From a virus, in the IMG/VR virus record IMGVR_UViG_3300032431_000019, positions 1-42,174 of that record: a stretch of DNA of 42,174 bases. One strand, 5' to 3'. The position numbers and the translations under genes are program-made. Below the pieces are notes generated by a model. It had not been told where the DNA came from and did not search any database. It saw only the letters and a program-made list of their open reading frames with translations. This document shows positions 2,160 through 20,276 of the stretch, in pieces; positions within the stretch are counted from its first letter, which is position 1; every line of letters starts with the position of its first letter.

Positions 2160-2194
2160 AACCGTAGAATTTGCGTTCTACGGTTATTTTTTTT
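2160..2194. terminator. Bidirectional intrinsic terminator where the two arms converge
   Basis: A 10-bp stem AACCGTAGAA / TTCTACGGTT with loop TTTGCG is followed by a T9 run on the plus strand and by ATTTTGTGTG on the minus strand. It lies between the late operon and the stop of minus-strand gene 2193-3338. Confidence 0.8.
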
Positions 2195-3338
2195 ACCAGT
2201 TGTTGCACCTCTCAAGAGCGCGTACGAATAATTTAGTGTCTTTCACCCCACTGAAATATGTGAGGCGCGACTTGTAATCACTGACGCGCAAACTGGCAGC
2301 TTTAAGCAACTCGTCTGTACTGTCGAGCATTGTCGTCTGCGACTTGTTAAGGTAGCTACCATCAAGCCAAACAAACCTGTCAATGTTTGGGTTGGTGTTA
2401 AGCAAGCCGAGATAGAGTTGCTGACCATCGCAGTCGCCCGACACAATGATGGTGCTGACTCCATACTTGTCGCACAAGCCGTTAATTTGCTTGACGTAAA
2501 AAGGGCGAGAAAGTGGACAATCTATAACAGACGCATCTAAATCACCGTCTCTGTCAAAGTCCTTAACATAATCATTACCGTGCATGGTTAAAGTTTCGCT
2601 GCTACGCACACCATTAACTACATACCACTTTGGCACCCCATTATATGTGGGTGCAACAATAACATTGAAGTCATCGCGGATAGCACTGACAGCATTTAGC
2701 AGTGTTGAGTACAACGTGTTGTAAGAACTGCACGATGGCGAAAAGTCAGGTAGAAAAAGAATAGACGGCGTTTGACGGTCTTTCTTTTTAGTATGTACAG
2801 ATACGTCGCGGTAAGTTTCTAGACGTTTCGCGAATTTACTACCGTCAAGTTCATCGCTGTCATTCGCCATACCACCCTCTACCAGTTGGTAGATAGCACC
2901 TTGTATTCGCTTAATGTCATCGTATCCCACCTTCTCTTTTTTTGGAGGTGTAACAATGACAGCGCGCGGATACCAGTTGTTTGGGTCTGACGATGAGCTT
3001 GCGACAGGTGCGCTGAGAGTGTCAAACTGTATGTCAACTTCTGTGTCAGAGTCGAAGCCATCCTCATAGTCAGGGTTTATCACCTCTTCATCAATGAGGT
3101 ACTCAATTTCTTGTTCGCGCAACTCTGTGAGTTTGTCGAAGTCTTCGTCAGAAATGAGTTCGTCAATTATCGCCGCAGCTTCGGAATCACCCTCAGAGAT
3201 AACGTCAATTAGCTCACTCTTGAGGGTAGGTTCTTCTGTAATTGTCGTGACTACAAAATTGAGGCGCAACAGAGTCTGGTACTCTTCGGAGGTACACTCT
3301 TTATAGTCACCATCAACAGTCTTGTAAGCGTATTTCAT
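2193..3338 (-). CDS. VWA (von Willebrand A) domain protein, CobT-like; acidic N-terminal half
   Basis: The MIDAS-type DxSxS motif (LFLPDFSPSCSS, about nt 2733-2747) is followed about 105 aa later by IIVSGDCDG, as in VWA folds. The N-terminal 120 aa are strongly acidic. TAATG coupling links it to the upstream AAA+ gene. Confidence 0.65.
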   Translation of the reverse strand: MKYAYKTVDGDYKECTSEEYQTLLRLNFVVTTITEEPTLKSELIDVISEGDSEAAAIIDELISDEDFDKLTELREQEIEYLIDEEVINPDYEDGFDSDTEVDIQFDTLSAPVASSSSDPNNWYPRAVIVTPPKKEKVGYDDIKRIQGAIYQLVEGGMANDSDELDGSKFAKRLETYRDVSVHTKKKDRQTPSILFLPDFSPSCSSYNTLYSTLLNAVSAIRDDFNVIVAPTYNGVPKWYVVNGVRSSETLTMHGNDYVKDFDRDGDLDASVIDCPLSRPFYVKQINGLCDKYGVSTIIVSGDCDGQQLYLGLLNTNPNIDRFVWLDGSYLNKSQTTMLDSTDELLKAASLRVSDYKSRLTYFSGVKDTKLFVRALERCNNW

Positions 3339-5053
3339 TAGAATGGCATCCTCGTAGAAGAGTTGTTACTGATGTAAAATTTGGTGGCGTAGTTCGCCTT
3401 GCTCAAGATTTCGTAATCTTCAGGTTCTTTACAAAGATAGGCGAACATCAGCGTCTCCACATCTTTAATAGATTGCGCGTGTTCGAGCGATGCAGCAAAT
3501 TGCATACCCTCTTTTACGGAAGGTGAACTTGCACCTCCAGCACGAATAGCAATTAGCGCGTCAACAATTATGGATGCTTGCTTGTGCGCGATTAAGCTGA
3601 TTTCCACATCACGCGGCAGAAAGTCAAAGTGGTGGCGATAGCAGCGGCGCAAGAAAGCTTCACTGTGAGGGCGGTAGCCATTAGAGGTGAAGAAGAGGGT
3701 AATGTTTTTAGCAACACCAACTTCTTGACGGTCTAGGAAAGGTACGCGGTAGTTCTCTGCAAAGTCGAGTAGCAAGTTTTCGGTGCGCTTCGACGCTTTA
3801 TCAATTTCGTCAATACACACCACAACTTTACCTTTGCGTGAAGCTTGCACAGCGCGGAGAAGAATACCAGCTTGGTACACCTCTTCGTGATTGTCAGCCT
3901 CACGGAGTACCGCTTTGCCGACGTTGACGCTGTAGAACAAGTCTTCGCTGTTTGTACCATCATGGCAGAGGGTATAAATGTACTCTGCTCTGTTACGAGC
4001 GGCGTAACAGGAGGTGAAGAAAGTCTTGCCAGTTCCAGGTTTTCCAAGAAGAAGAGCGACATTAGTTTTGTTTTCTGTGTCTTCTAGGATGCGGATTAGC
4101 AGTTCGTCAGGCTTGCGGAGTTTATATGTTCCCATATCCATTGTTTGTGTGTAGATTGGTTCTGTTTCTGTGACTTCTGTTAGAGGTACGCGAGTGAATA
4201 CATATTCATCACCGTAATCTCTTATCGTTTTAGTATCAAGGTGCGGCTGTACATTTATAGATTGCTCTAAGTCTTCAACCACACAATCGAACCATCCAAA
4301 TGTTTTGCTTTCGCAGTAGAACACATGCAGCATTGATTTTGAGCTGAACGAGACAACTGCTCTCGGAGCTACATCTGAACGTATAAAAATGTAGAGTACA
4401 TCGTAGAGTACAAATGCAACTACCTTTGTTTGTTCTTTGTCAATAGTTAGTGAAGACATGAAATCTTCAGCAAGAGAGCGCTGCTCGTCACAGAATTTTT
4501 GCGCATCTTTTAGGTGATACTTCTGTGTGGTATTAGCACCATCACATGTTACACGAACTGGTGGACGAACAAAGGTCTGTGTGAGCGCGTCATAAAGCAC
4601 AGAGTCAGCATCTTCAAGGTCATTGATGTTTGGTAGACCTAACGGAAAAGGCGGTTGCACGATGCTAAATCTTTTAAACCTTACGTTTGAACGCTTTCCA
4701 TTAACATCTACAGTAAAGTTTAGAGAATTTGTAAACCTAGGTATTAAGCCAAACTTCTCAAATTCGTCCCAAGCTGCTCTTGCTACATCAGCATTGTAAC
4801 TTGCACCATTGTGTATTTCCCAACCTGTGTTTGTTGTTGTTGTTGTTGGTGCAAGCTCTTTGATGTCGTCAGTTTGTTTTCTTTTAAACATTCCATTCAC
4901 AACCATTCCGCTTGATGGGTTTATAACAGAGAAACTAAACGACTGTACATCATCGTCTGGAACGCCACGTCTGTAAAACTCATCCCAAGCTAGTCTCTCT
5001 TGGGTATTACTGTATTTACCACGGTCATCACAAAGCTCCCATTCTGTATTCAC
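3338..5053 (-). CDS. AAA+ ATPase, MoxR/CobS-like, with an about 320-aa N-terminal extension containing a tandem duplicated domain
   Basis: Motifs seen are Walker A LLLGKPGTGKTF (about 4021-4056), Walker B VVVCIDEIDKA (about 3796-3830), sensor FFTSNG and LRRC. A GTG start overlaps the upstream stop (GTGA) and is preceded by AGGAG 9 nt upstream. Confidence 0.85.
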   Translation of the reverse strand: MNTEWELCDDRGKYSNTQERLAWDEFYRRGVPDDDVQSFSFSVINPSSGMVVNGMFKRKQTDDIKELAPTTTTTNTGWEIHNGASYNADVARAAWDEFEKFGLIPRFTNSLNFTVDVNGKRSNVRFKRFSIVQPPFPLGLPNINDLEDADSVLYDALTQTFVRPPVRVTCDGANTTQKYHLKDAQKFCDEQRSLAEDFMSSLTIDKEQTKVVAFVLYDVLYIFIRSDVAPRAVVSFSSKSMLHVFYCESKTFGWFDCVVEDLEQSINVQPHLDTKTIRDYGDEYVFTRVPLTEVTETEPIYTQTMDMGTYKLRKPDELLIRILEDTENKTNVALLLGKPGTGKTFFTSCYAARNRAEYIYTLCHDGTNSEDLFYSVNVGKAVLREADNHEEVYQAGILLRAVQASRKGKVVVCIDEIDKASKRTENLLLDFAENYRVPFLDRQEVGVAKNITLFFTSNGYRPHSEAFLRRCYRHHFDFLPRDVEISLIAHKQASIIVDALIAIRAGGASSPSVKEGMQFAASLEHAQSIKDVETLMFAYLCKEPEDYEILSKANYATKFYISNNSSTRMPF

Positions 5054-5874
5054 TCTATAAAACTCCTATACCAATAAGGTTTGTAAGTCAGAAGGTACTG
5101 ACCATCACAGTCATAAAATGCCTCTTTGTAGAAGGAGTAGCGCATATTAGGAGGTACAAGAAACTTACCAGTCAATGTACCTCCACGCTTTTCTGGCACT
5201 CCTTCTGGTGCATTAAGATTCTCGATGATGTAGTCAATACCATCTGTGTTGTCAAAGTGTTTGATGACGAGTCGTGCGCGAGTCAAAATCCTGTCATCCC
5301 ACTTCAACGGAATTTCTCGCAGTTCGTTGGTAGACTTGTTTATGATAAGCCACACGCCGCGCTTTGTTTTCTTTGCAGCACAGTAAATGTGCAGTTGAGT
5401 TAGATACCCTCTGTCATCATTCTGGTTACGGCAGAACTCGCGGAAGTAGGTGTCAGACATTGTTTTAACTTCTACTACCGCTTCACCTACCATAAAATCG
5501 ATATGACCGAGAACACCTCCAAACTCAACTTCGTCTTGTGCGCTGTGGATGTCATACCCCAATAGGAATATGACACACATCACAAACGCCTCGAAGACGT
5601 GTCCAAGCATGAATATCCAGCGCAACTTAAAATTAATTGCATCAGGTTCGCTATACCCAATCTTCGCTAAACAAAGAAGAATAAGCGGCTTACCCATTGC
5701 TGATACGCGAAGCTTGTCAGAGTGTGCGCCATCTCTAAAGAAAACATCTTGCACAGAGGATGCGAGAGTCTTGGAGAAGAACGCAACGACCTTGATGATA
5801 GTGGCGCTATCCACAGGGTATGCGCCAGCTTCGTCGCCGTTCCAGTATTCGAGTAGCCGCCTAAATGTGTTCAT
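5050..5874 (-). CDS. PD-(D/E)XK (RecB/Cas4/YqaJ-like) exonuclease
   Basis: The core motif is GHIDFMV...EAVVEVKT (D...ExK), followed by YLTQLHIY (QxxxY). It is ATGA-coupled to the upstream ORF and sits next to an annealase, the typical exo plus SSAP pairing. Confidence 0.75.
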   Translation of the reverse strand: MNTFRRLLEYWNGDEAGAYPVDSATIIKVVAFFSKTLASSVQDVFFRDGAHSDKLRVSAMGKPLILLCLAKIGYSEPDAINFKLRWIFMLGHVFEAFVMCVIFLLGYDIHSAQDEVEFGGVLGHIDFMVGEAVVEVKTMSDTYFREFCRNQNDDRGYLTQLHIYCAAKKTKRGVWLIINKSTNELREIPLKWDDRILTRARLVIKHFDNTDGIDYIIENLNAPEGVPEKRGGTLTGKFLVPPNMRYSFYKEAFYDCDGQYLLTYKPYWYRSFIE

Positions 5875-6173
5875 CTTCTTCTTGTTGTTTTACGTTTTGC
5901 TGGTTCTTCTTTCTTCGGTTGGCGCACTTTGACTGTACCACCAAGGACGGGATACTTGCCGCCACCGTCTGGTTTGTCCCAAATCGCCACATCGAGTGTG
6001 TAACGGTCTTGGTCGTCACCATCACCTTGAAGGTTGACGGCTTCATTGAGAATCTCTTTCATTTCGTCAATGGTGAATTGGAGTGTACCCTTGTACATCG
6101 GGTGTGCGTCAGTTGTCGCATACTCGTTCTCCCATAAGGAGATGTACGCTGTTGATTCTTTAGATTTAGCCAA
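5871..6173 (-). CDS. Hypothetical 100-aa protein with a basic tail (possible OB-fold or ssDNA-binding accessory; unverified)
   Basis: The TTG start overlaps the annealase stop and is preceded by AAGAGAG 8 nt upstream. The first in-frame ATG would be at 6098. It lies between the SSAP and the exonuclease, where SSB genes sit in Sak3-type modules. The C-terminus is PKKEEPAKRKTTRRR. Confidence 0.55.
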   Translation of the reverse strand: MAKSKESTAYISLWENEYATTDAHPMYKGTLQFTIDEMKEILNEAVNLQGDGDDQDRYTLDVAIWDKPDGGGKYPVLGGTVKVRQPKKEEPAKRKTTRRR

Positions 6174-6909
6174 AGGGGTTAGCTCTCTTACTTGTTGTTG
6201 CTGGTTTTTGACTGCGCGAGTTTGTAGTTGCGGTCGATGAGCGCGAAGTCGATGAGGCTGCTCTTGCTGGTTGAGTGCGACGAGCTAGAGGCTTTTTTTC
6301 CTCTGTCTCGAAGACTTCTTCTTCTTCGTCTTCGCAGTCTTCTTCCTCATCATATCCGCTATCATCGTCTGAATACTCTTCATCTTCAACCACAGGCGAT
6401 GGAGCAGGTCGTCTAGCAGGTGCGGCACGTTTAGCTGTTTCGCGAGTAGAAACAGGAGACGAACCATTGATGTCCTCTTCTTCAAGTCTAAGCCATAGAT
6501 TTAAACCAATTCCAGTCACCTCTGCCAAGACCTTCGCCTTTGCACGCTGAATACTGTCAGTGATAGCGCGAGAGTCAGGGTCAATAGCGCTGCTGTGGTT
6601 GAAACCAGTCATAACTGGAAAATGACTAGGCAAAGAGGTAGCACCACTAATTGTATCCACGATGAGTACAGATACAATTGCGCTACCATCTGGTAAAAAC
6701 ATGACAGGTTTGCCGTCAAACAACTCCGTGGTGAATGAAAATTTAGGATAATGGCGCTTCATAAGCATGAGACACACACTCCATGGAAGGTATTCCATAC
6801 CACCCTTCGGATACTTCTTGACAAGATTGGAAACGTCAAGAGCAACGTTGGTTTCAAACTCTGCGTTTGGTATAGAGATTGTCATCGTGTTTGCTTGCAC
6901 AGTCATCAT
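6166..6909 (-). CDS. Single-strand annealing protein, Sak3/DUF1071-type (Rad52 superfamily), with acidic then Ser/Thr/Lys-rich tail
   Basis: The pattern EYLPWS...HYP...DG...VSVLIV...FPVM...N...IDPD...ITDSIQRAKAKVLAEVTGIGLNLW matches the remembered Sak3/DUF1071 signature (YLsW, PVM, QRa.vKa.a..GlGL.lY). The start is set at ATGATG 6909 (AAGGA 9 nt upstream) rather than the GTG at 6963 in the ORF track. Confidence 0.7.
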   Translation of the reverse strand: MMTVQANTMTISIPNAEFETNVALDVSNLVKKYPKGGMEYLPWSVCLMLMKRHYPKFSFTTELFDGKPVMFLPDGSAIVSVLIVDTISGATSLPSHFPVMTGFNHSSAIDPDSRAITDSIQRAKAKVLAEVTGIGLNLWLRLEEEDINGSSPVSTRETAKRAAPARRPAPSPVVEDEEYSDDDSGYDEEEDCEDEEEEVFETEEKKPLARRTQPARAASSTSRSSTATTNSRSQKPATTSKRANPFG

Positions 6910-7009
6910 CGGTGATTGTCCTTGTAGCATTAGTTTAGTAGTTAGTAAAGAACTTGAACGCACATTTAGGGTGCAGTCTGGCTAGGGTGTTTCTAGTCAC
7001 CAACGACAT

Positions 7010-7807
7010 TTACAGCATCCTCAAGAATACAGGAAAGCGCGGCTTAACCTGTTCAGAGCGCTGATACTTGAACTCAACAGACTTGCCGATGAGTTCATCT
7101 TTTATACTCCACAGGATAGAGCGCGACATATCATCAAGACCGCTGCCACATGAGAACTCTACACCCTCAGAGGTGCGAAGTTGTAATGAGCCGAGAGTGT
7201 CAACAGACATGCCGCCTTCGAGTTTGCACTCATATCCGATAACTCTAGCAGTTTCTGTCATGGCACGTTTGAATGATAAGTAGGACTGTTCTTTGAATGT
7301 AACCCTACCGAATTTGTAGGGTGCGTCAGGGTCGCGGATAATTACACCCTCTAGACCATCTAACACATATTGTTGTTCAAGCTGTAATAGCTCTTCGAGA
7401 GAGTTGACTATATCATACGATGCACAATGGATTCGTAATGATGGCTTGCGCTCAAAGTGTAGACGGTGAATCCTGTCACCAAACTCTTTGTCAGGTATGT
7501 CAAACCTGTCGAACATATAAAGATGCCAACGCTCATCCTCTTTGTAGTGAGAACGGACAAAAGAAGTAGTGTCGCTAAAAGAGTTGTTAACTACAAGCTC
7601 ACCTTCTCTACCATCGGGTAAATCTTTTAGTGCAGCGCGGAGGTAGCCATTAGGTACGGTTTTACCTGAACGCATCTTAAGTACGCCGTTAACCTTCATA
7701 ACGCGGATACCATCATACTTTGGCATGACAATCTTTGGAAACGTGATGAGGTTGAGAAACTTCTCTCTACCTCCATCAAGAGTGTGGTCAGCTAACATTG
7801 CTTTCAT
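7010..7807 (-). CDS. ATP-dependent DNA ligase (minimal, 265 aa)
   Basis: Nucleotidyl-transferase motifs are present: I PKYDGIRV, III LYMFDRFD, IV LEGVIIRD, V LSFKR and VI-like KPRFPVFLR. TAATG coupling links it to the polymerase gene. Confidence 0.9.
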   Translation of the reverse strand: MKAMLADHTLDGGREKFLNLITFPKIVMPKYDGIRVMKVNGVLKMRSGKTVPNGYLRAALKDLPDGREGELVVNNSFSDTTSFVRSHYKEDERWHLYMFDRFDIPDKEFGDRIHRLHFERKPSLRIHCASYDIVNSLEELLQLEQQYVLDGLEGVIIRDPDAPYKFGRVTFKEQSYLSFKRAMTETARVIGYECKLEGGMSVDTLGSLQLRTSEGVEFSCGSGLDDMSRSILWSIKDELIGKSVEFKYQRSEQVKPRFPVFLRML

Positions 7808-9747
7808 TAAGAACTCTTCTCCTTGGCTTCATACCAGTTTTTACCATGATGAAACTCGCAAGTGATTGGCACTGCGAAATCTTCACCTACTAATATAGTA
7901 TCATTAGTATAGAGAGAAGTCAACACTTTACAGTAATCATCTGCAAGCCCTTCTGGAGCTTCATATACTACCTCATCATGGACTTGTAACAACTGATGCA
8001 GACCAGCATCTTTTAACTGTCTGTCCACACTAACACTGTTGATATAAGACATTACACCTGAAGCAGCAGTTAAATCTAAGAATGACATTGACGCTCCATT
8101 TTGAAGTACTTTAAACACACTAGATGCACCGCCTTGTATGAGGTAATTAAAGCATTGTCGCGACGCTCTCGCATACTCCTGACCTTGACGGTCATAGACT
8201 ATACCCTCAACACGCAACAATCTACCCATAACATCTTTGAAGCAACCTTTGTTCTTACGCGCATGAGAGATTAGCTCTTCCTTTAACTCCTCGATTGGAG
8301 TAGTAGCATAAATGCGTTTGATTACTTGCTTTGCTTCTTTGACAGCAATACCTGTGATGTGTGCAATCTTATTTGCACCACCACCATACACCAAACAGAA
8401 GATGACAGTTTTTGCTACACGACGTTCACAATGCCACAAGTCTGCATTAGATTGGTGCAAGTCTTCACCTGCACGAACCGCGTCACTCATGCCAGTGAAG
8501 CCAAGCACCAACTCAAGGTAGTAAGCAAGCACAACAAGCTCAATCCTATTAAGGTCGCCAACAACCAAAGAATATCCCTCAGGTGCAATGAAACACTTTC
8601 GGATGTTGTAAGCGTCATCTGCTCTATATGAGTAGGTGTCACCAGCTTTCTTCTGCGCTGGCATATTCTGGAGATTTGGCGCGGCTGACGACAACCTACC
8701 TGTACGAGTGTTAAATTGTTTAAACGATGTTCTGAGTCGTCCACGAGAATCTACTCCATCACGCAATGGTGGTACGAATTTTAATACAGCGTCGAGGTCT
8801 TTAAGCTCAACGATAGACCTTGCCAAAGGGTGAGCCAGTTGCTCTAATGCGTCGCGAGTGAATGATGGTTTGCCCGAACCAGTGAACTCCACGAAGTCGG
8901 TAAAGCCATCTTTAGCGAGTGCCATTTCAATCTGGTCACCACTGTTAGGGTTAAACGGTTTAACAAGGCAGTGGTCGTAGGTGATTTCGTTATTACGCTT
9001 GTTATACCCTACCATCTGGATTTTAGGTCTTGTTGCAAATATTACCTTCTTGGAGTAGATAACTTCTTTGTCAGGTACAAGACCGACACGATTCTCCATG
9101 GCTTGCACCATCTTGAACCGCGCACCGTCTAGGAGTACACCCATAGAGATGAGTTCGGCGGTGTTCATCAATACGCCATTACCTTGCATGGCAATGATGC
9201 GCTCGATGTAGGGTAATTCTACAGTGTGGTAGTAGTCTAGTAAGCGCGGGTCTTGAGCCAGTCTATCTTGGAGGTAGTAAAAGACGTTGCGTGTAATCTC
9301 AACGTCGTTTACGTTGTACTCTTCAAGGTCGAGCGCCCACTCGTCATACTCCTCATCACCCTCTTGAGGTGGAGCAGACTTAAAGTCAAAGTGCATCTTT
9401 TCACCACCACCAGCTTCTTGAGCTAGTGTGGCGAGAGAGTGTGCATTGAGAGGTGCAGGATTGAGACAGTACGACATACACATTGTATCATCGTAATTGC
9501 GAATGTCAAAACCATTGAGGCGCAGAGTAGGTACATCAAAGGCGGCATTGTGGAATACAAACCTGTCATTACGCATTATATACGTTTTTAGGTGAGCAAA
9601 TAAAAGAGTGCTGTCTAGTAAGTCTGTGTAGCTGTAACTAATAGCTGGTTCGTCATCTACAGCTATACCAACTCGAGTAATATGACAGTTAATGTCGTAT
9701 GTACTCTCTAAACCTTGTGTCTCAATGTCACAGAAAATTCTTTGCAT
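7807..9747 (-). CDS. Family A DNA polymerase with 3'-5' exonuclease domain (T7 gp5-like)
   Basis: Motifs seen are ExoI FCDIETQGL, pol motif A SLVVGDLNRIELVVLA, motif B RRVAKTVIFCLVYGGG and motif C LQVHDEVVYE. The start is set at ATG 9747; the track start at 9756 is a TTG three codons upstream. Confidence 0.95.
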   Translation of the reverse strand: MQRIFCDIETQGLESTYDINCHITRVGIAVDDEPAISYSYTDLLDSTLLFAHLKTYIMRNDRFVFHNAAFDVPTLRLNGFDIRNYDDTMCMSYCLNPAPLNAHSLATLAQEAGGGEKMHFDFKSAPPQEGDEEYDEWALDLEEYNVNDVEITRNVFYYLQDRLAQDPRLLDYYHTVELPYIERIIAMQGNGVLMNTAELISMGVLLDGARFKMVQAMENRVGLVPDKEVIYSKKVIFATRPKIQMVGYNKRNNEITYDHCLVKPFNPNSGDQIEMALAKDGFTDFVEFTGSGKPSFTRDALEQLAHPLARSIVELKDLDAVLKFVPPLRDGVDSRGRLRTSFKQFNTRTGRLSSAAPNLQNMPAQKKAGDTYSYRADDAYNIRKCFIAPEGYSLVVGDLNRIELVVLAYYLELVLGFTGMSDAVRAGEDLHQSNADLWHCERRVAKTVIFCLVYGGGANKIAHITGIAVKEAKQVIKRIYATTPIEELKEELISHARKNKGCFKDVMGRLLRVEGIVYDRQGQEYARASRQCFNYLIQGGASSVFKVLQNGASMSFLDLTAASGVMSYINSVSVDRQLKDAGLHQLLQVHDEVVYEAPEGLADDYCKVLTSLYTNDTILVGEDFAVPITCEFHHGKNWYEAKEKSS

Positions 9748-10225
9748 ATACCTCAAAACTCCTGTGGTCTGTGTAGCTCATTGGCAGCGAACGGATACCC
9801 ATCTTGTTTGCCCATGAAATCATTTCTACTCCAGTTAGAGGAAACTTACCATGAGGTGCAGGATTGCCACGCATAAGATGATAGTTCGCTAGTTCTACCT
9901 TTGTCAATTGTGGTGCAATTGCGTAGTGCAAGTCTGGATAGTGAAAGATGGTAGTAGAAAGATAGGGTGCAAGAGCTTCGCGCAACTTGTCAATCTCCTT
10001 AAACTTTGCACCAACAATAACATAGATGTTATCAGTGGTGAGAAAGGAGAAGGTGCTGCTAATTTTCTGCGCGTCATCTTTCTGGAGTACACCCTTTAGC
10101 TCAATGATGAACTTGCCCTCCACATGGAAGTCAGGAACATAATTGCGGATGTACGGAAGAGACAACTCTTCATATGGTAGAGGGTGCTTCTTAATAAAGC
10201 ACTCCTCGAATTGGCTTCGTGTCAT
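9728..10225 (-). CDS. T7 endonuclease I-like Holliday junction resolvase
   Basis: SQFEE...PYEE..LPY...YVPDFHVEGKFIIELKGVLQKDDAQK parallels T7 gp3 (FEYEEWKVPY...YTPDF...FVETKG...DDRKK). A GAGGT Shine-Dalgarno lies 7 nt upstream. Confidence 0.85.
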   Translation of the reverse strand: MTRSQFEECFIKKHPLPYEELSLPYIRNYVPDFHVEGKFIIELKGVLQKDDAQKISSTFSFLTTDNIYVIVGAKFKEIDKLREALAPYLSTTIFHYPDLHYAIAPQLTKVELANYHLMRGNPAPHGKFPLTGVEMISWANKMGIRSLPMSYTDHRSFEVYAKNFL

Positions 10226-10413
10226 TAGGAGTACCTCTGAAGTTTAACGTCACCTTTAAGGTCTTCGCCTACAAAGAATAAAGAACCTTCACCTTTCAAA
10301 TTAGATTGCAACATTAGGGCAACAAAGGATAATGCTAATGCTACAACTTCTTGCTCTGAAAGAGTAGTGCTAATCTGAGAAATGTCGAAAATCATTTCAG
10401 GTGTGAGTTTCAT
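10225..10413 (-). CDS. Hypothetical small protein (62 aa), paralog of 10413-10622
   Basis: It is TAATG-coupled. It shares the pattern E..(x)LAL.(F/Y)VA.M...F.(V/I).ED..G...L with the upstream ORF. Confidence 0.6.
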   Translation of the reverse strand: MKLTPEMIFDISQISTTLSEQEVVALALSFVALMLQSNLKGEGSLFFVGEDLKGDVKLQRYS

Positions 10414-10622
10414 TATGTATCCATGATGAGGGTGATATTACCTGTGTGGTCTTCTGCAATGTAAAACACGCAGTAGTCATCGGAATTAAGCACCTCTTCG
10501 GCGCACATCTCTGCAACATACTTGAGAGCAAGCTTTATTGTGTCCTCTTCGTTTGCCAGATTTTCATGCACATTGCGAATGATATTAATCTGTTTACGCA
10601 TTGCGTCAGTTATTGTCGTCAT
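10413..10622 (-). CDS. Hypothetical small protein (69 aa), paralog of 10225-10413
   Basis: ATG ORF overlapping the primase-helicase stop by 17 nt. See the paralog pattern above. Confidence 0.6.
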   Translation of the reverse strand: MTTITDAMRKQINIIRNVHENLANEEDTIKLALKYVAEMCAEEVLNSDDYCVFYIAEDHTGNITLIMDT

Positions 10623-12237
10623 GTCTTATAATCTCCGTATACTGTTTTGTAACTGAGTCATAACTCAATGTGGCGTTGAGTTGTAATGTGTCACGCATCC
10701 GTGACTTCTTGATAACTTGAAGGTAGCGCATATTGTCTTGAACGTCACCGTTCATTGCAATAACACAGGTGGCTTTCTGTTTAATAGCACCACCTCCACG
10801 AATCTCGCCAAGTGTGACATTGGATGATTCTTTTGTACCCTCAGAGCGAGTGTGCTGAATAGCAATGACGGCAACAGGCGGCTGTCGTTCGTCAGGGTTG
10901 CCTTGAGTCAGTGTTACCAACTCTTGCATAACCCTTGCAGCAACATCGTACTTACCAGCAAAGTCACTGTCGATGTCTTGCAGCACATCTATAAAGATAA
11001 CCTCAACGCCGTGAGTCATAATAGCATTAACGCACGCTTCTATAACTTTGTCAACATCACCAAGTAAGTTGTTGTAGAACAACAAGCCAGACGATATGTA
11101 ATTGACGGCATCACTCTCTGTTTGGGTGTTGATGTCTACTACCCCAAGCTCATTACGGTAAGGGTAGCCAGTGTGTCTCTCGATGAACTTAATCACCATC
11201 TGGTTAGGTAGCATTTCTGTACCTACCCAAAGGCATTTGACACCACAAGTGTGCATATGGTACGCAACGCAACAACCAAGTGTAGACTTGCCGCGTCCTG
11301 TGTGTGCCACAATGATTAACAATTCACCTAATTGTATACCACCACCACCTAACATCCTATTGAGTCCATCGAAGCCCATGTCGATACCAGCAGACGCACC
11401 CATCGAAGTCTTCCACTTGTAGAAGTCTTTTACCAATGAAGTGCCAGTAATGATATCGCTAGATGAGAGTGCAGTCGCATCAGAGTGTGCTTGACGCAAC
11501 TCCTTAACGGTGCACTCACACACATCATTCTTCTTTGGAGGTATAATCATGGCGAAGGTGCGCCATTTGGGTAGTAGTTCTAAAGCTTTTGCCAGTGCTT
11601 CTCTACCAGCATTGTCATTGTCCATGCAAACGTAGATACGCTTGAATGAGCGCACCCACGTTGCTGCGGCTGTAAGAGCCTTTTCTACACTGTCCGTACC
11701 ACTAACACCTACACAGGTATCATGTGGAAAGACTTGGGACATTGCCATCGTGTCGCTTTCACCCTCACATATGAATAAGGTGTCAGACATACTAGACTTG
11801 GTGCGTGTGCCGAACAAAGAATGTGGTGCACCATGCCACCAGATGTGTTTCTTGTTGTCTCGCACTTCGGCAGCGAAGTCGCGATACTTCACACCAGTTA
11901 GTCCACCTTGTAAGTCATAATACGGATAGACCGCAACGTACGTGCCTTGACCATCTTCTTCTAATTGAAACACCTCATACTTGGTGAGGGTTTGTTGGGT
12001 GATAAGACCACCCTTAAAGGACGGGATATATGTCAAGTTAAGCGGCATAGAGGGTGAAGGTATTATACCCTTACTACCCTTCGTTGCCTTCTTATCATAT
12101 GCAGAGTGTACATGGTAACCACAAGCGAAACAGTGTGAACCACCATCGGCGTAGTTCACAAGATTGTCGCCCGACTTGTCGTTACCTTCTTTTCTACACG
12201 CTGGACAAGCGCTTTTACTAATGACAGCGTTAGCCAT
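10606..12237 (-). CDS. Bifunctional primase-helicase (T7 gp4-like)
   Basis: Domains seen are an N-terminal Zn ribbon CPACRK...HCFACG, TOPRIM FICEGESDTMA ... CMDNDNAG, and a DnaB-type helicase with Walker A VAHTGRGKST and Walker B-like IFIDVLQD. GGAGG lies upstream. Confidence 0.93.
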   Translation of the reverse strand: MANAVISKSACPACRKEGNDKSGDNLVNYADGGSHCFACGYHVHSAYDKKATKGSKGIIPSPSMPLNLTYIPSFKGGLITQQTLTKYEVFQLEEDGQGTYVAVYPYYDLQGGLTGVKYRDFAAEVRDNKKHIWWHGAPHSLFGTRTKSSMSDTLFICEGESDTMAMSQVFPHDTCVGVSGTDSVEKALTAAATWVRSFKRIYVCMDNDNAGREALAKALELLPKWRTFAMIIPPKKNDVCECTVKELRQAHSDATALSSSDIITGTSLVKDFYKWKTSMGASAGIDMGFDGLNRMLGGGGIQLGELLIIVAHTGRGKSTLGCCVAYHMHTCGVKCLWVGTEMLPNQMVIKFIERHTGYPYRNELGVVDINTQTESDAVNYISSGLLFYNNLLGDVDKVIEACVNAIMTHGVEVIFIDVLQDIDSDFAGKYDVAARVMQELVTLTQGNPDERQPPVAVIAIQHTRSEGTKESSNVTLGEIRGGGAIKQKATCVIAMNGDVQDNMRYLQVIKKSRMRDTLQLNATLSYDSVTKQYTEIIRHDDNN

Positions 12238-12689: not shown

Positions 12690-13002
12690 CCGCTTTTAAG
12701 AATGTGTACAGTTCGTCAGGTGACAAACCAATTTTTACATTTCTACCCAAGCAGGACAGAATGAAGTTCGTACAAAGGTATTGGTTGCGGTTGAACACCC
12801 ATAAGGTAGCTTTAAACCACCAATGACCAAAACCAGACGGCAGTATGTCGCGCAAAGTTGCAGCGCGGTCTGCAATCAACGCCATTTCAAACTCAGATGG
12901 TGATAGTTCTACTTCCCACACAGACTCAACCAAGAAGTCTTGCTGTGTGTATAGCACTCCATTCCATGTGTAGTGAAATAGAGTCTTATTCTGAAAAATC
13001 AT
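12676..13002 (-). CDS. Hypothetical protein (108 aa); very tentative permuted NlpC/P60-like Cys/His pattern
   Basis: The start is trimmed to ATG 13002 (MIFQNK...). The 76-aa upstream extension in the ORF track overlaps the better ORF 12986-13678. Residues HYTW ... CTNFILSCLG suggest His-before-Cys. No other support. Confidence 0.5.
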   Translation of the reverse strand: MIFQNKTLFHYTWNGVLYTQQDFLVESVWEVELSPSEFEMALIADRAATLRDILPSGFGHWWFKATLWVFNRNQYLCTNFILSCLGRNVKIGLSPDELYTFLKADVTV

Positions 13003-13678
13003 CACTACATGGGTCGAGTAGCTCGTCTTCCCCGCTAAGGAGAGAAATAAAGACATCACTTTGGAGTGTTTCGTCCGTACATTCATTCCTAACACCCTCA
13101 ATGAATTGGGTGAGCAAGTGGTCATTGATGAGTGTTTCCACCCACTTGGAGCGCCATGCCCAAGTGTCTTGAGTTTTTTGTTGCGGATAGCGTTCATACT
13201 TCCGCGTGTACCAGTCAATGTAACTTTCATGTCTTCTCCAGAGGGTGAAATAAGTGACTACACTGTAGACTTGCCAAGACGAGGCTTGGTCAGCCGCTAA
13301 GCCGCCTAGTCCCCATCTTCTCATCATCAGTATCGCTTCTATATTAGTGAAGGCACTAATAAAAGCTTTGCAATTCCAGCTAATTGACTTGTCCCATTTA
13401 AGGGCACATAACTCATAAAAAAAAAGTACACGCTGGTCGGTGTACTCTTTATTCTTCTGACGCTGTTGGCGAAAGTGGTTACGTTCTACTTTCTTAATGA
13501 ACCCGTACACTTCATACCATAAGGCTTTACGCTCACTCTCATGAAGGTGCCCGCCGAGGGTGACAAATGGCATAAGCCATTGCAGCGCGTTATATCCTTC
13601 ACCTCCATGCGCCATATGTTCGCGGAGAAGTTCTTCGCGAGTTAAGTCAGGAGGTGCTTTCTTTCTTCTCAGCTTCAT
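12986..13678 (-). CDS. Hypothetical Trp-rich helical protein (230 aa), acidic C-terminus
   Basis: A long ATG ORF with amino-acid composition plausible for a real protein. No motif was recognised. It contains a T9 homopolymer (13417-13425) encoding LFFY. Confidence 0.6.
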   Translation of the reverse strand: MKLRRKKAPPDLTREELLREHMAHGGEGYNALQWLMPFVTLGGHLHESERKALWYEVYGFIKKVERNHFRQQRQKNKEYTDQRVLFFYELCALKWDKSISWNCKAFISAFTNIEAILMMRRWGLGGLAADQASSWQVYSVVTYFTLWRRHESYIDWYTRKYERYPQQKTQDTWAWRSKWVETLINDHLLTQFIEGVRNECTDETLQSDVFISLLSGEDELLDPCSDDFSE

Positions 13679-13823
13679 TGTCTTTTATAATAGGAAACAC
13701 AACAATTAATTCATATATGCTAAGGAGCATATCTTGTTCTTGTTCTGTCAGGTCTACCGCGATTCGTGAGACATGCTGCGCTGCATTATGCGCAACAGTG
13801 TGTAGTTTACAAGCTTTATCCAT
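13647..13823 (-). CDS. Hypothetical small protein (58 aa)
   Basis: The start is moved to ATG 13823, which has GAGGAG 4 nt upstream and overlaps the upstream stop (ATGGATAA). The track start at 13844 lacks a Shine-Dalgarno. Confidence 0.55.
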   Translation of the reverse strand: MDKACKLHTVAHNAAQHVSRIAVDLTEQEQDMLLSIYELIVVFPIIKDNEAEKKESTS

Positions 13824-14064
13824 GATACTCCTCAAAGTTGTCATCGAAGTAAGCTTTAGACACTAACCATTGGTCATTGTGGTCTTTAAGGTTACGAGCT
13901 ATCATGTCTCCAGACTTTGGACTTCCATTTTCTTTGTCAAAATCTGAAATTGAAATTGAAGTATTTAAAGAGTCACCCGCGACATAATGTCGGAGTTCAG
14001 CGATAACTTTTCTTTTGTATCTTTTAAATTCCATTCTTGCACTTAATACAGAGTAACAGTCCAT
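13816..14064 (-). CDS. Hypothetical small protein (82 aa; alternative start 14034)
   Basis: ATG ORF in the operon series. Composition is protein-like. Confidence 0.5.
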   Translation of the reverse strand: MDCYSVLSARMEFKRYKRKVIAELRHYVAGDSLNTSISISDFDKENGSPKSGDMIARNLKDHNDQWLVSKAYFDDNFEEYHG

Positions 14065-14111
14065 TGCACAGTAAAGAGTGTGCAGTTATTAGCCGCACAC
14101 TCCAGAGGTTA

Positions 14112-15209
14112 TTAGAAGCGCTTGCTGAAGAGCTTACCCTTTCCAGTGGGTGCTTTCTTGGCAGCTTTAGCCTTGAGAGGCTCCTTGATGTCGTTATCTA
14201 CCTTCCATGCGTCGAACACGAAAGCAGACACCTTCGCAGAACCACGAGCGATATTAGCATCTGTCGCGGTAGCCAAGAACTTGGTTTCGCAAGCAACATA
14301 ATTGTCAGCCAACCAGTGGATAGAACCCAAAAATTCTTTCTCATTTGTGAGGTACTTCTTGGCTTTAGCAAAGAAAGACTTACCAAATGACAGAAGGGTG
14401 CTTTCGCGACGTTGCAACTCACCACTGTACAATGTGAGAACTGTGCCAAATGCTTCGGCGGCTGATAGTCTGCCACTGAAAGCTGCTCTTACGAGAGATT
14501 CGGCGTTGTACTCAATGTTGAGTGAAGACAACTTGAACGCGGCTTTTTCACCAGCATATGCCTTACGGCTTGCGTTATCGGCAAGTACAAGTGCACCACT
14601 GAGGAGTGTATCTTCTACACCCTCTGCGTTAACGCTAGATGACACCAAACACTGCAATTCTTGGTTTAGCCAAGAGTCGTCGAGAATATTGACACCTGCG
14701 CTGTGAGCAATTAGAGAGAGGGTAGTGATGCGATGGCGCAAACCTACACCAACATACTCCAGCAGACCAGTCAAAATATTAACACGTTCGGTAACGTGCG
14801 GAGCGCTTAACAGTTGTTGAACTGTGAAGAAGCCAATTTGTGGGTCGGCGAGAATACCACTGATAGATGTCACGTTGATTTCGCTCTGCGTACCATACGC
14901 GTCGCTTTCCTCAATGGCATCATACAGCTCCTGAATTGTGAGGTAGCGCAATTCGCGAGTAATGCTACCTTGAAAGCGTGTGTACAAGAAACTGGTGTCG
15001 CCAGATTCTACGCCATCTTTGAAGGTTGGCGCATCTTCGCTATTGCTGAAGTCTGCAACTAGACTAGCCGCCTTACTGGTTAGACCAGATAACAACACAG
15101 AATAAGCTGTGTCGCCATTGTCGTTAACAGGAGATTCATCAACGAAGATGCCTTGCACATATGTACATTCAACACCTTCAATCTCTTCTTCTTCTGGTTC
15201 AAATCCCAT
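14112..15209 (-). CDS. Hypothetical helical protein (365 aa); acidic N-terminus, basic C-terminal tail ending GKLFSKRF
   Basis: A long ATG ORF with AAGAGAG upstream. Its tail resembles that of the ParB-like protein (17115-18008). Confidence 0.65.
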   Translation of the reverse strand: MGFEPEEEEIEGVECTYVQGIFVDESPVNDNGDTAYSVLLSGLTSKAASLVADFSNSEDAPTFKDGVESGDTSFLYTRFQGSITRELRYLTIQELYDAIEESDAYGTQSEINVTSISGILADPQIGFFTVQQLLSAPHVTERVNILTGLLEYVGVGLRHRITTLSLIAHSAGVNILDDSWLNQELQCLVSSSVNAEGVEDTLLSGALVLADNASRKAYAGEKAAFKLSSLNIEYNAESLVRAAFSGRLSAAEAFGTVLTLYSGELQRRESTLLSFGKSFFAKAKKYLTNEKEFLGSIHWLADNYVACETKFLATATDANIARGSAKVSAFVFDAWKVDNDIKEPLKAKAAKKAPTGKGKLFSKRF

Positions 15210-15286
15210 TATATACTCTCTTTGCGGTGGGTTAGTGTACCACCACGCTGCACTAGATGTGCAGACGGCTCCTTTTCTTTATACCC

Positions 15287-15305
15287 TCTGTGAAGTCAAG
15301 AGGTG
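15287..15305. repeat. 19-nt exact repeat, copy 1 (tctgtgaagtcaagaggtg); minus-strand reading CACCTCTTGACTTCACAGA
   Basis: It is identical to 15859-15877. Both copies are flanked by tatacc(c/a). It is intergenic, upstream of gene 14112-15209. Confidence 0.85.
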
Positions 15306-15311
15306 CAGAAT

Positions 15312-15809
15312 TTACGTCTGTTTAACAGATACTTCTACCATCTGGTCTTCTGAAACTTTAACTTCGAGTAGAGTTGTCGTTCTACCTGATGGGTAGCCAG
15401 CTCTATTGGCGCTAAGCTTGAATGATGGGTGCTTTCCATCAGGTAATACCAAGAAGAAAGCATCACCAATCTCTACCTCTGAAAACTTAACACGTTTGTA
15501 CTTCGTTGTCAAGACGCGGTTAGGGTAGTGTTTGCTCTTATCGCTACCAATCAAGTCAAAGATTTCAGTGTCTCTAATGTACTGTTCATCTGACTTTAGA
15601 TAAGTCTCGTTCAGTTCCTTAAGTCCGTCAACACTCTCTGCCATGACTGTGTACTGCGTGGTTTGCTCAAAACCAGCAGTTCTAACACCTTGCTCACGAT
15701 ATATCAAATGACAGTATAGAGCTACTGAATACTTTCTACAACCGTAACCGCCTGAGTCAGAACAGAAGTAAGGACAGTCAATTTCTCTGCAAACATTAAT
15801 AAGTGACAT
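15312..15809 (-). CDS. Hypothetical protein (165 aa) with a Cys-rich N-terminus
   Basis: The N-terminus reads CREIDCPYFCSDSGGYGCRKYSVALYC (five Cys in 27 aa, possibly metal-binding). The ATG follows promoter 15843-15871. Confidence 0.6.
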   Translation of the reverse strand: MSLINVCREIDCPYFCSDSGGYGCRKYSVALYCHLIYREQGVRTAGFEQTTQYTVMAESVDGLKELNETYLKSDEQYIRDTEIFDLIGSDKSKHYPNRVLTTKYKRVKFSEVEIGDAFFLVLPDGKHPSFKLSANRAGYPSGRTTTLLEVKVSEDQMVEVSVKQT

Positions 15810-15839
15810 TTGGTTTCCGTTTGTAATTTAAGTTGTAAG

Positions 15840-15857
15840 GGTATAGTAGGCTATACC
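15840..15857. repeat. Intergenic palindromic hairpin, variant copy (GGTATAG-TAGG-CTATACC)
   Basis: A 7-bp inverted repeat related to the 8-bp palindromes at 16733-16752 and 17085-17104. It overlaps the spacer and -10 of promoter 15843-15871. Confidence 0.8.
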
Positions 15858-15871
15858 ATCTGTGAAGTCAA
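15843..15871 (-). promoter_or_regulatory. Sigma70-type promoter TTGACT-17-TACTAT
   Basis: The minus strand reads cacctcTTGACTtcacagatggtatagccTACTATaccc. The -35 is at 15866-15871 and the -10 at 15843-15848, with a 17-nt spacer. It lies about 35 nt upstream of ATG 15809. Confidence 0.6.
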
Positions 15872-15877
15872 GAGGTG
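15859..15877. repeat. 19-nt exact repeat, copy 2; contains the -35 of promoter 15843-15871 and overlaps the stop of gene 15868-16104
   Basis: Identical to 15287-15305. Confidence 0.85.
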
Positions 15878-16104
15878 GTGTAGTAATTTTTAGCAAGTTT
15901 GACACAAAGCTCTAGTGCTTCTTGCATTGAATCAGTTACTACAAAAGGGCGTAAATCGTTAACGTTACTATACACGCAAACTTGACCATTTAAGTAATGT
16001 TCACGCTGATTAGGATAGTCATCCATGTGTCGTAGACGAGCAGAGAGCTTATCTAGTATACACTTGATAGTAGCGTGTGTAGATGGTATGTAGAATATTT
16101 GCAT
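15868..16104 (-). CDS. Hypothetical early protein (78 aa), paralog of 16762-17049
   Basis: The shared C-terminal block is VVTDSMQEALELCVKLAKNYY here versus VVIDSMQEALEFCLSVIQDYY in the paralog. Confidence 0.7.
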   Translation of the reverse strand: MQIFYIPSTHATIKCILDKLSARLRHMDDYPNQREHYLNGQVCVYSNVNDLRPFVVTDSMQEALELCVKLAKNYYTTS

Positions 16105-16128
16105 TGTTTGTTGTTACCTTATGTAAAA

Positions 16129-16320
16129 TTAAGAAGTGAACGCGCCACCTTTAGTGGTTATAATACGGTGTACTGCTTTGTCAGACCATTGAAATCCAAC
16201 GTGTGTTTTTAAATCTACCACAGTCATAAACTGTTTGCTAAAACCTGCAAGTATCGCAGGATTACCATCTAATGTGATACCTACTTCATCAGACAATTTT
16301 ACAAGTTCGGCTCTAGTCAT
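16129..16320 (-). CDS. Hypothetical early protein (63 aa)
   Basis: The start is set at ATG 16320. The GTG at 16362 in the track would sit at the predicted transcription start of promoter 16369-16397. The leader is ACAACAAACAAACAAACAA. Confidence 0.55.
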   Translation of the reverse strand: MTRAELVKLSDEVGITLDGNPAILAGFSKQFMTVVDLKTHVGFQWSDKAVHRIITTKGGAFTS

Positions 16321-16368
16321 TTGTTTGTTTGTTTGTTGTAATTTAACGTGGCTTAATTCCACCTCTAT

Positions 16369-16397
16369 ATACTACCACCATATCAATTGGGTGTCAA
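16369..16397 (-). promoter_or_regulatory. Sigma70-type promoter TTGACA-17-TAGTAT with TGn extended -10
   Basis: The minus strand reads agagTTGACAcccaattgatatggtggTAGTATatag. The -35 is at 16392-16397 and the -10 at 16369-16374. It lies directly downstream of terminator 16488-16517. Confidence 0.7.
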
Positions 16398-16425
16398 CTC
16401 TTATTTTGAGTTACTCCGCAACAGG

Positions 16426-16453
16426 TTGATGATAGTTCACTTGCGCGTATAAT
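16426..16453 (+). promoter_or_regulatory. Plus-strand (antisense) promoter-like element TTGATG-16-TATAAT
   Basis: A perfect -10 hexamer lies at 16448-16453 and a -35-like TTGATG at 16426-16431. It points against the early operon, with no convincing plus-strand gene downstream. Confidence 0.4.
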
Positions 16454-16487
16454 ATAATTGAACGTGCGCGAGGAAGAATTTTTAGAC

Positions 16488-16517
16488 AAAAAAAAAGTCC
16501 TACCGATTAAGGTAGGA
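16488..16517 (-). terminator. Intrinsic terminator (minus strand)
   Basis: The minus strand reads TCCTACC-ttaatc-GGTAGGA followed by C and a T9 run (plus-strand A9 at 16488-16496). It lies 8 nt after the stop of the small ORF 16525-16698. Confidence 0.6.
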
Positions 16518-16524
16518 AGGAAAG

Positions 16525-16698
16525 TTAAGAATAGGCTAGATCCCAGATATTTTCTAAACCCTCATAAGAAATGTAGCACATCATCACATCGTCAAAATCT
16601 CCCAGATCCTCGATTTTGTCGTATGTATCAAGCTTGTCGCAAGAGTGACTAGCTCTAAGATATTGAATGTAATAGGCAAGAAGTAAGTAGTAAATCAC
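16525..16698 (-). CDS. Possible small acidic early protein (57 aa, GTG start)
   Basis: It is not in the ORF track because it is under 60 aa. It reads VIYYLLLAYYIQYLRASHSCDKLDTYDKIEDLGDFDDVMMCYISYEGLENIWDLAYS. It is co-oriented with the operon and followed by a terminator. It has no Shine-Dalgarno. Confidence 0.35.
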   Translation of the reverse strand: MIYYLLLAYYIQYLRASHSCDKLDTYDKIEDLGDFDDVMMCYISYEGLENIWDLAYS

Positions 16699-16732
16699 GA
16701 TTGTAGTTATAAGGTTTGTTAGAAGGAAGGAA

Positions 16733-16752
16733 GGGTATAGGCGGCTATACCC
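16733..16752. repeat. Intergenic palindromic hairpin GGGTATAG-GCGG-CTATACCC (copy)
   Basis: An 8-bp perfect inverted repeat with a 4-nt centre. A 23-nt block (agggtataggcggctatacccta) is identical to 17084-17106. It lies 10 nt after the stop of 16762-17049. Confidence 0.85.
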
Positions 16753-16761
16753 TAAGGAAGA

Positions 16762-17049: not shown

Positions 17050-17084
17050 TGTAATTTGTTGATAGTGATTTTTAGAAGTAGAGA

Positions 17085-17104
17085 GGGTATAGGCGGCTAT
17101 ACCC
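17085..17104. repeat. Intergenic palindromic hairpin GGGTATAG-GCGG-CTATACCC (copy)
   Basis: Identical to 16733-16752. It lies 11 nt after the stop of the ParB-like gene. Confidence 0.85.
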
Positions 17105-17114
17105 TATTGGATTG

Positions 17115-20266: not shown

Positions 20267-20276
20267 GCAAAATTAT

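Follow-up and report, generated by a model that had tools for sequence, protein, structure and literature searches.

A NorQ-like ATPase/VWA gene pair beside a recombination trio in a podovirus genome: probably two modules rather than one system

NorQ-NorD and CbbQ-CbbO are pairs of a MoxR AAA+ ATPase and a VWA-domain adaptor that serve as metal-insertion and Rubisco-activase remodellers. [quoted passage not shown] AAA+/VWA gene pairs recur in phages and archaeal viruses, where they frequently go under the names 'cobS/cobT auxiliary metabolic genes' or 'chaperones'. They include the adjacent orf63 and orf66 of Bacillus phage 0305phi8-36 (PMC2147016) and the pairs of two haloviruses, Hardycor1 and HVTV-1 (PMC7911831). 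The latter source also notes vWA proteins in HCTV-2 and HHTV-2 and cites the MoxR-type p618 and the VWA-containing p892 of Acidianus two-tailed virus (ATV), implicated in tail development. The 'cobS/cobT' annotation is widespread in marine phages, its function being acknowledged as uncertain (PMC11288001, PMC11705849), and within the literature searched no phage MoxR/VWA pair is assigned a function. Here we describe such a pair in IMG/VR virus record IMGVR_UViG_3300032431_000019, positions 1 to 42,174 (the window, 42,174 nucleotides), in which it follows genes for a single-strand annealing protein, a small protein (orf100) and an exonuclease. The five-gene block probably consists of two adjoining modules, an inherited recombination trio and a mobile two-gene ATPase/VWA cassette.

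An earlier note on this DNA had put the five genes forward as a candidate for an undescribed functional system. Reading of the open reading frames (ORFs) confirms that all five are present on the minus strand as stated (6166-6963, 5871-6173, 5050-5874, 3338-5053 and 2193-3338), and their products divide as follows.

6166-6909, minus strand: single-strand annealing protein of the Sak/DUF1071 (Sak3) type (Pfam PF06378, PHROG 8492/659)
5871-6173, minus strand: orf100, small protein with a basic C-terminal tail, conserved in the clade and placed within the trio
5050-5874, minus strand: PD-(D/E)XK (Cas4-domain) exonuclease (PHROG 1990)
4136-5053, minus strand: N-terminal extension of the AAA+ protein (residues 1-306), hypervariable and absent from distant homologues
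3338-4135, minus strand: MoxR-class AAA+ module, NorQ/CbbQ-like (residues 307-571 and stop codon), from AAA_5 and Foldseek matches
2787-3338, minus strand: N-terminal part of the VWA protein (small domain, acidic linker and pre-VWA helices)
2196-2786, minus strand: VWA domain of CoxE/ViaA type (about residues 185-381), from VWA_CoxE, hhalign, AlphaFold2 and Foldseek

The ATPase/VWA pair occurs without the trio. When 1.84 billion representative proteins were searched with a profile of the VWA family, about 90 clusters (50% identity) were recovered, mostly of 500-600 residues with the VWA domain at the C-terminus. Adjacency of the ATPase and VWA genes holds for the window, for those related loci that cover the ATPase position and for all eight distant loci (L006, L007, L014, L015, L016, L022, L024 and L025, at least three of them viral), each of which has an AAA_5 gene of 264-278 codons directly beside the VWA gene. 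In the five distant loci scored, the ATPase matches the core of the window protein with 122-186 bits, whereas a generic MoxR protein reaches 48 bits; the free-standing 267-residue ATPase of L007 is 41% identical over 251 residues, and its residue 1 corresponds to window residue 307. The neighbours of the distant pairs, as judged by PHROG and Pfam, are terminase, HNH, IS605-type and other transposases, integrases, SNF2 helicases, phosphoadenosine phosphosulphate (PAPS) reductase and proteins without assignment. Homologues of annealase, orf100 and exonuclease were not detected in five of these loci, no recombination family is among the Pfam marks of the other three, and PHROG scans of the neighbours gave no recombination family either.

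The trio, in turn, occurs without the pair. The closest cultured phages are cyanopodoviruses of the Saffermanviridae type (PP, Pf-WMP3, A-4L and TR020), whose PolA is 29% identical and whose terminal exonuclease gene shows 27-34% identity to that of the window. From 7010 to 12237 (L020/L021) the replication arm of the window is syntenic with that of the Saffermanviridae-type freshwater cyanopodoviruses at a protein identity of only 27-34%. In PP and TR020 (the two inspected) the arm ends with annealase, small ORF and Cas4-domain exonuclease and has no ATPase/VWA pair; the exonuclease gene is followed at once by convergent tail genes in PP and by an unrelated extra gene at that spot in TR020. 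Searching about 50,000 phage records with tblastn gave no cultured-phage match for the ATPase or the VWA protein, and megablast of the region against them found nothing; the clade has no cultured member there. Because the pair occurs without the trio (eight loci) and the trio without the pair (PP, TR020), we read the block as two modules; the proposed five-gene functional system is unsupported, and the expectation that the pair would be linked to recombination genes in homologous phages is contradicted by the eight other contexts, in which no recombination genes were detected.

Three further features of the distant relatives are recorded here. In one sub-lineage, represented by L006 (9788-10180), L007 (9088-9501) and L014 (5058-5438), a third conserved ORF of 126-137 residues directly follows the VWA gene; its products match one another with E values of 1e-25 to 1e-45, have no PHROG and are absent from the window, and might act as an additional component or as a client. 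Two unrelated pairs adjoin a helicase gene (L016, 9393-12017, PHROG 62 'DNA helicase'; L025, 4631-6682, Pfam SNF2-rel_dom), which may be coincidence or a recurrent association. The long VWA partners P0154-P0206 (500-600 residues) carry 'RPKGTDEVAPQS..PSEDS..HGGDGxSGEV' in a low-complexity acidic region (columns ~320-360 of alignment A3, described below) and 'P-x-T-V-R-x-A-Q-K' at the N-terminus; neither motif is present in the window protein.

The AAA+ protein (571 residues; gene 3338-5053, minus strand) carries its ATPase module in the C-terminal 265 residues, where the following motifs are found.

4022-4045, minus strand: Walker A, GKPGTGKT (residues 337-344)
3800-3826, minus strand: Walker B, VVVCIDEID (residues 410-418), with D415 and E416 invariant
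3641-3694, minus strand: sensor-1 strand FFTSN (N458) and arginine-finger region FLRRC (R469, R470), invariant columns

Pfam AAA_5 matches residues 334-470 (9.3e-19, 68.3 bits against a cutoff of 22) over profile positions 3-138 of 139. The top PDB sequence match is NorQ, although sequence identity to NorQ/CbbQ is only about 20%, and outside its own clade the nearest relatives among 5.8 billion proteins are cellular MoxR ATPases of 320-340 residues (1e-8 to 1e-4). In the alignment-based AlphaFold2 model the C-terminal module has a predicted local distance difference test (pLDDT) score of 75-90; Foldseek against the PDB with the ATPase places NorQ/CbbQ structures at all of ranks 1-17 (E = 1.5e-10 to 2e-7), with MCM, ClpA, BchI and Lon below them. 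Across 26 homologues the Walker A residues G337, P339, G340, T341, G342, K343 and T344 do not vary, and K338 hardly does. The sensor-1/arginine-finger region aligns to the 'SYNPGY' and '...R' regions of NorQ, and a hairpin (436-445) precedes the sensor-1 strand in the DSSP assignment of the model. An insert at 364-396 aligns to the H2I (helix 2 insert) region of NorQ, a block in which pLDDT is only about 60. CobS_N, AAA_3 and CbbQ_C domains were not found in the ATPase by Pfam, nor was there a CobS match in NCBIfam.

Because it matches AAA_5 and NorQ/CbbQ, keeps the invariant motifs and has no CobS_N, AAA_3 or CbbQ_C, the ATPase is, as judged from its sequence and its predicted fold, a MoxR-class protein closest to NorQ/CbbQ and not CobS; of the MoxR/CobS-like label given earlier, the first half stands and the second falls away. 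Assignment as a clamp loader (PHROG 168, 4.8e-12) was rejected, the match covering the generic P-loop region only and being outranked by AAA_5, NorQ and CbbQ. The family as a whole conserves a lid motif, G-A-S-S-P-S-x-K-E-G (3506-3538, minus strand; residues 506-516). We take it to resemble the 'G-x-S-P-R' sensor-2 segment of MoxR proteins, the Arg being replaced by Ser and followed two residues on by a conserved Lys.

The product of the last gene (381 residues; 2193-3338, minus strand) has a divergent VWA domain of CoxE/ViaA type with two conserved elements.

2733-2747, minus strand: MIDAS motif DFSPS (D198-x-S200-x-S202), invariant in close and distant homologues
2424-2438, minus strand: GDCDG loop with D302, the distal MIDAS aspartate

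Two alignments were compared, A1 with 32 close homologues and A3 with 33 sequences including distant ones (down to 19% identity). D198, S200, S202 and D302 are invariant in both; the DxSxS motif sits at the end of a predicted strand (192-198) and D302 (GDxDG) follows strand 294-300, and between them neither A1 nor A3 contains a conserved Thr/Ser that can be assigned. The N-terminal part comprises a β-β-α-β domain (residues 1-33), an acidic linker with a conserved EYxIDEELINPDYDE and pre-VWA helices ('LDGxKFxKRLETxRDV'), whose 'R.D...F..RL.T.R' segment is kept across the wide family. Pfam VWA_CoxE matches the protein with 16 bits, under the gathering cutoff of 26.4, and 21 of 32 family members match it weakly, sub-threshold, at β1/α1. 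Alignment of the family profile with E. coli ViaA by hhalign lines up the DxSxS (MIDAS) strands. The AlphaFold2 model (pLDDT 67 overall) has a C-terminal domain of alternating β and α elements (pLDDT 75-90), with an extra hairpin (257-270) in a variable region. Its top Foldseek match in the PDB is 9qhe_G, a chain of the NorQD complex (probability 0.96), which we take to be the NorD VWA domain. Fold matches in BFVD include several phage VWFA proteins (best E = 1.6e-5), among them those of Thermus phage P74-26, Streptomyces phage Samisti12 and Gordonia phages; the Foldseek scores are modest, the query being the whole multi-domain model. The protein has no PHROG family, and profiles A1 and A3 against PDB sequences returned low-complexity or chance matches only (GH57, eIF3c, and CobT at E = 1 through the acidic linker).

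The last product thus stands as a predicted VWA-MIDAS protein of CoxE/ViaA type on profile and model evidence, and with it the earlier placement of 2193-3338 in the VWA fold and of 3338-5053 in the MoxR class is borne out. The description of the former as CobT-like is kept in its VWA part (invariant MIDAS core, Foldseek) and lost in its CobT part, no CobT match having been obtained. The same results bear on the reading of the pair as CobS/CobT cobaltochelatase auxiliary metabolic genes, as annotated in many marine phages. CRP-810-type phages are among those reported to carry such pairs (PMC11288001, PMC11705849), and the ATPase has a weak, partial match to PHROG 249 'porphyrin biosynthesis' (cobS; 3.4e-5). 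Against this, Pfam and NCBIfam detect no CobS_N, CobT or CobT_C, with CobT found neither in the window protein nor in ten distant relatives, and NorQ/CbbQ lie clearly above the chelatase BchI in Foldseek. No CobN or Mg-chelatase match occurs in the eight large or unassigned window ORFs scanned, though a host CobN is possible, and the blank tblastn result covers phage records that include cobS/cobT carriers. A chelatase role is accordingly given hardly any weight. Phage N4 gp24/gp25, considered as a possible AAA/VWA pair, was tried as a relative and discarded, since hhalign against A2 and A3 aligned only the P-loop (probability 3% and 0.5%).

The clade to which the window belongs comprises about 25 metagenomic contigs of 38-44 kb, in which the order annealase, orf100, exonuclease, ATPase, VWA is kept, even in L004, its most divergent member. 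This can be read in another way, namely that the five genes act together as one system, the MoxR/VWA motor serving to remodel recombination nucleoprotein complexes during recombination-dependent replication, for example by loading or stripping the annealase or by handing off exonuclease-processed ends. The exonuclease (74-76% identical within the clade) and the ATPase core (69-74%) are moreover the most conserved proteins of the block. Several observations weigh against our two-module reading. The pair always adjoins the exonuclease gene in the clade, and the 4-8-nucleotide overlap of the exonuclease and ATPase genes is kept even in L004, so that co-expression with the recombination genes is conserved and a functional link is conceivable. 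The flanks of the distant pairs are short (at most 8-10 kb; some contigs span 2.6-10 kb) and many neighbours are unannotated, which leaves room for unrecognized recombinases. The VWA call itself draws on sub-threshold scores and a model of medium confidence (Foldseek E = 2e-3 to 2e-5), and the MIDAS threonine could not be located.

Because the genomes of the clade are syntenic throughout, however, their shared gene order amounts to a single evolutionary observation, and whole-genome synteny within one clade explains the adjacency. No cultured phage has the pair, start/stop overlaps are generic in this genome (see below), and the fastest-evolving part of the block is the ATPase extension, which would be unexpected if the targets were its well-conserved neighbours. 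Taken with the pair and the trio each occurring alone, these points make a single five-gene system unlikely. Even together, tight gene overlaps in a compact phage genome and synteny inside one clade do not amount to evidence for a functional system of several genes.

The junctions and the transcriptional setting of the block were examined in the same light. The annealase and orf100 genes overlap by 8 nucleotides (TTGGCTAA), orf100 and exonuclease by 4 (ATGA), exonuclease and AAA+ by 4 (GTGA), and AAA+ and VWA by 1 (TAATG), so that the overlap of 4-8 nucleotides claimed for all junctions applies to the first three and not to the last. Overlaps occur at 23 of the window's 38 same-strand junctions, ligase/PolA and most of the structural genes among them. 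Start/stop overlap is thus the default in this genome and no mark of the five-gene block, which weakens the earlier observation. Relatives have extra small ORFs or gaps of 84-296 nucleotides between orf100 and the exonuclease gene. The block had also been regarded as a transcription unit of its own. It is, however, the tail of a continuous leftward array from about 12.7 kb, the gap between the ligase gene and the block is only 46-100 nucleotides, and no promoter-like site lies in the ligase/annealase gap; for these reasons no separate unit is supported. Promoter-like sites in the scan were no commoner than in shuffles, which makes the scan uninformative on a promoter of the block's own.

The part of the ATPase that most distinguishes this clade is its N-terminal extension, which could not be aligned across 26 homologues whose cores are 69-74% identical; for comparison, the exonuclease is 74-76%, the ligase 58%, the annealase 56-59% and the VWA protein 45-48% identical. 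The ATPases of L004 (253 residues) and of L006 and L007 (267 residues) begin where window residue 307 aligns and are without it. AlphaFold2 gives it pLDDT values mostly below 50. Two internal repeats are present.

4877-5047, minus strand: internal repeat copy 1 (residues 3-59 of the extension)
4667-4828, minus strand: internal repeat copy 2 (residues 76-129 of the extension)

Their local alignment score is 61, compared with 27.3 ± 4.6 (maximum 47) for shuffles, and the repeat of about 55 residues has the motif W-E-x...Y...A-W-D-E-F...G...F-K-R. The small N-terminal domain of the VWA protein shows no similarity to these repeats (score 20; shuffles 25). Because the extension is clade-specific, internally duplicated and hypervariable, we infer that it is a fast-evolving specificity or recognition domain. 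Its hypervariability favours a host-specific or conflict-related target over the conserved recombination proteins, relaxed constraint being the alternative explanation.

With the target class named, the two-module reading takes a more specific form, in which the pair is a counter-defence or host-takeover device whose motor dismantles or inactivates a host complex, for instance one of a defence system, while the extension tracks host variation. An extension that cannot be aligned despite core identity of about 70%, that is missing from distant homologues and that is internally duplicated would suit such a device; so would a cassette that occupies a hotspot of accessory genes and moves between viral contigs that are unrelated, and MoxR-VWA modules serve prokaryotic conflict systems (PMC7159879). 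The PADLOC defence models, on the other hand, match none of the five proteins, the literature searched contains no link of a phage MoxR/VWA pair to counter-defence, and hypervariability could arise equally from relaxed constraint on a dispensable appendage, in a region where AlphaFold2 confidence is low. We regard counter-defence as a tentative possibility. That the whole NorQ-like ATPase/VWA family is a programmable machine for dismantling host proteins, serving host takeover or counter-defence and retargeted by swapping the ATPase extension, is a further and somewhat more doubtful step.

The trio upstream of the pair is well supported. The annealase matches Pfam SSAP_Sak PF06378 over residues 36-157 (4.1e-10, 39.8 bits against a cutoff of 22.3) and PHROG 8492/659 'Sak-like ssDNA annealing protein', confirming its description as Sak3-like. 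Its longest ORF reaches a GTG at 6963; an AAGGA Shine-Dalgarno sequence, the best of the starts, lies upstream of the ATG at 6909, which is the likely start. Orthologues in six related loci are 51-59% identical. Orf100 has no relative in Pfam, PHROG, NCBIfam, PADLOC or the PDB, and all of its 26 homologues come from this phage clade, so that it gives no independent context; by position it belongs to the ancestral recombination trio. Its invariant residues are S12 L13 W14 ... W65 G70 G71, and five relatives keep both its TTG start and the GAGGAG Shine-Dalgarno sequence before it, while the distant L004 has an ATG in that position. The PD-(D/E)XK exonuclease was likewise correctly named, matching PHROG 1990 'Cas4-domain exonuclease' (3.4e-21) and, below cutoff, Pfam DUF3799 (PDDEXK-like). 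IDF(x9)VEVKT can be read directly in its sequence. The four-cysteine C...CxxC...C arrangement of the Fe-S cluster of true Cas4 is not obvious by eye, no formal test having been applied, and the homologous genes of PP, A-4L and Pf-WMP3 are annotated 'Cas4-domain exonuclease'.

The window is a complete circular podovirus assembly of about 42,047 bp with an exact end overlap of 127 nucleotides (1-127 = 42048-42174); the ORF at 39293-42174 and 128-1202 is probably one structural gene of about 1,300 residues running across the circle junction. A leftward replication arm (about 12.7 kb to 2.2 kb) encodes primase/helicase, endonuclease, PolA and an ATP-dependent ligase, and a rightward structural arm encodes terminase, portal, scaffold, capsid and large internal proteins with an M23 peptidase. 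A single-subunit RNA polymerase was not recognized in the window. The VWA gene is the last of the arm and is directly followed by a terminator, where relatives carry DUF3310 or small ORFs.

2155-2190, no strand assigned: hairpin terminator (15-bp stem with A/T tracts on both sides) between the convergent arms

In the early region (12986-18323, minus strand, and 19062-20887) many ORFs (among them 14112-15209, 17115-18008 and 12986-13678) have no Pfam or PHROG family. Intergenic gaps here exceed those in the rest of the genome, a sign that the early genes may be promoted separately.

The arrangement of the arms bears on a further alternative, that the pair is a chaperone for virion assembly or maturation, as proposed for p618/p892 of ATV. 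A chaperone role of the MoxR/VWA proteins of ATV is cited in PMC7911831, the pair here abuts the convergent structural arm, and the pair of L006 lies between the terminase gene and the capsid genes. The pair is transcribed with the replication genes, however, on the strand opposite to the structural module, PP and TR020 build similar virions without it, and the hypervariable extension is unlike conserved structural proteins. A virion chaperone is very unlikely on this evidence.

The two-module reading suggests the following history and mechanism. The trio (6909-5050) would have come with the T7-like, RNA-polymerase-less replication arm that this podovirus has in common with Saffermanviridae-type cyanopodoviruses. 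The ATPase/VWA cassette (5053-2193) would be a self-contained, horizontally mobile unit, of a family carried mainly on phage or prophage-like contigs, that in this clade entered the arm at its 3' end, after the exonuclease gene and before the convergent terminator. In relatives this place, a typical slot for accessory genes, is taken by other genes of that kind. If the pair acts like NorQD, CbbQO and RavA-ViaA, its ATPase core would form a hexameric ring on which one VWA protein docks as adaptor, the metal bound at the MIDAS of the VWA domain would capture an acidic residue on a client protein, and ATP hydrolysis would remodel that client.

Among known systems NorQ-NorD and CbbQ-CbbO are the closest. 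They share the minimal ATPase module of about 265 residues, for which NorQ/CbbQ are the best structural and sequence matches, and an adjacent partner gene whose product has a C-terminal VWA-MIDAS domain after an N-terminal domain and a disordered acidic linker. The window pair differs in its identity of about 20%, its lack of CbbQ_C and its phage location with no nitric oxide reductase (NOR) or Rubisco client genes nearby; the ATPase of the clade has the hypervariable extension of about 300 residues, and the partner has 381 residues compared with 600-770. RavA-ViaA and CoxD-CoxE (PF05762) are related through the adaptor, VWA_CoxE being the only Pfam family matched by the VWA protein and its relatives, at 'R..D...F..RL.T.R...(5-10)...hhhhDxSGS', a segment that aligns to E. 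coli ViaA. The scores are below cutoff, however (16 against 26.4 bits), and the ATPase is not of the AAA_3/RavA type. MoxR-vWA ternary conflict systems (PMC7159879) have the same MoxR and vWA core, and the ATPases of L007 and L022 carry a faint bpMoxR (PF20030) mark, whereas the window genes have no third VMAP/effector gene and no PADLOC match and lie on a lytic-type phage genome, not in a cellular defence island. Membership of these systems was rejected on the grounds that the terminator directly follows the VWA gene, with no third component and no defence model.

The module of PP, Pf-WMP3, A-4L and TR020 has the same order of primase/helicase, PolA, annealase, small ORF, Cas4-domain exonuclease and convergent tail genes, but their annealases are Erf-/Rad52-like and the ATPase/VWA pair is missing. 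With the other viral AAA+/VWA pairs the window shares the two-gene architecture on a virus genome and a function that is at most proposed ('chaperone'), whereas its own pair has no similarity to cultured-phage proteins detectable by tblastn. The window pair is a sequence-distinct family within the documented phage MoxR/VWA remodellers. What it adds to them is a NorQ-like family that is found mainly on viral or prophage-like contigs, is absent from cultured phages and PHROGs and moves as a two-gene cassette, and in one clade of which the ATPase has gained a fast-diverging N-terminal domain that offers a handle for finding the target.

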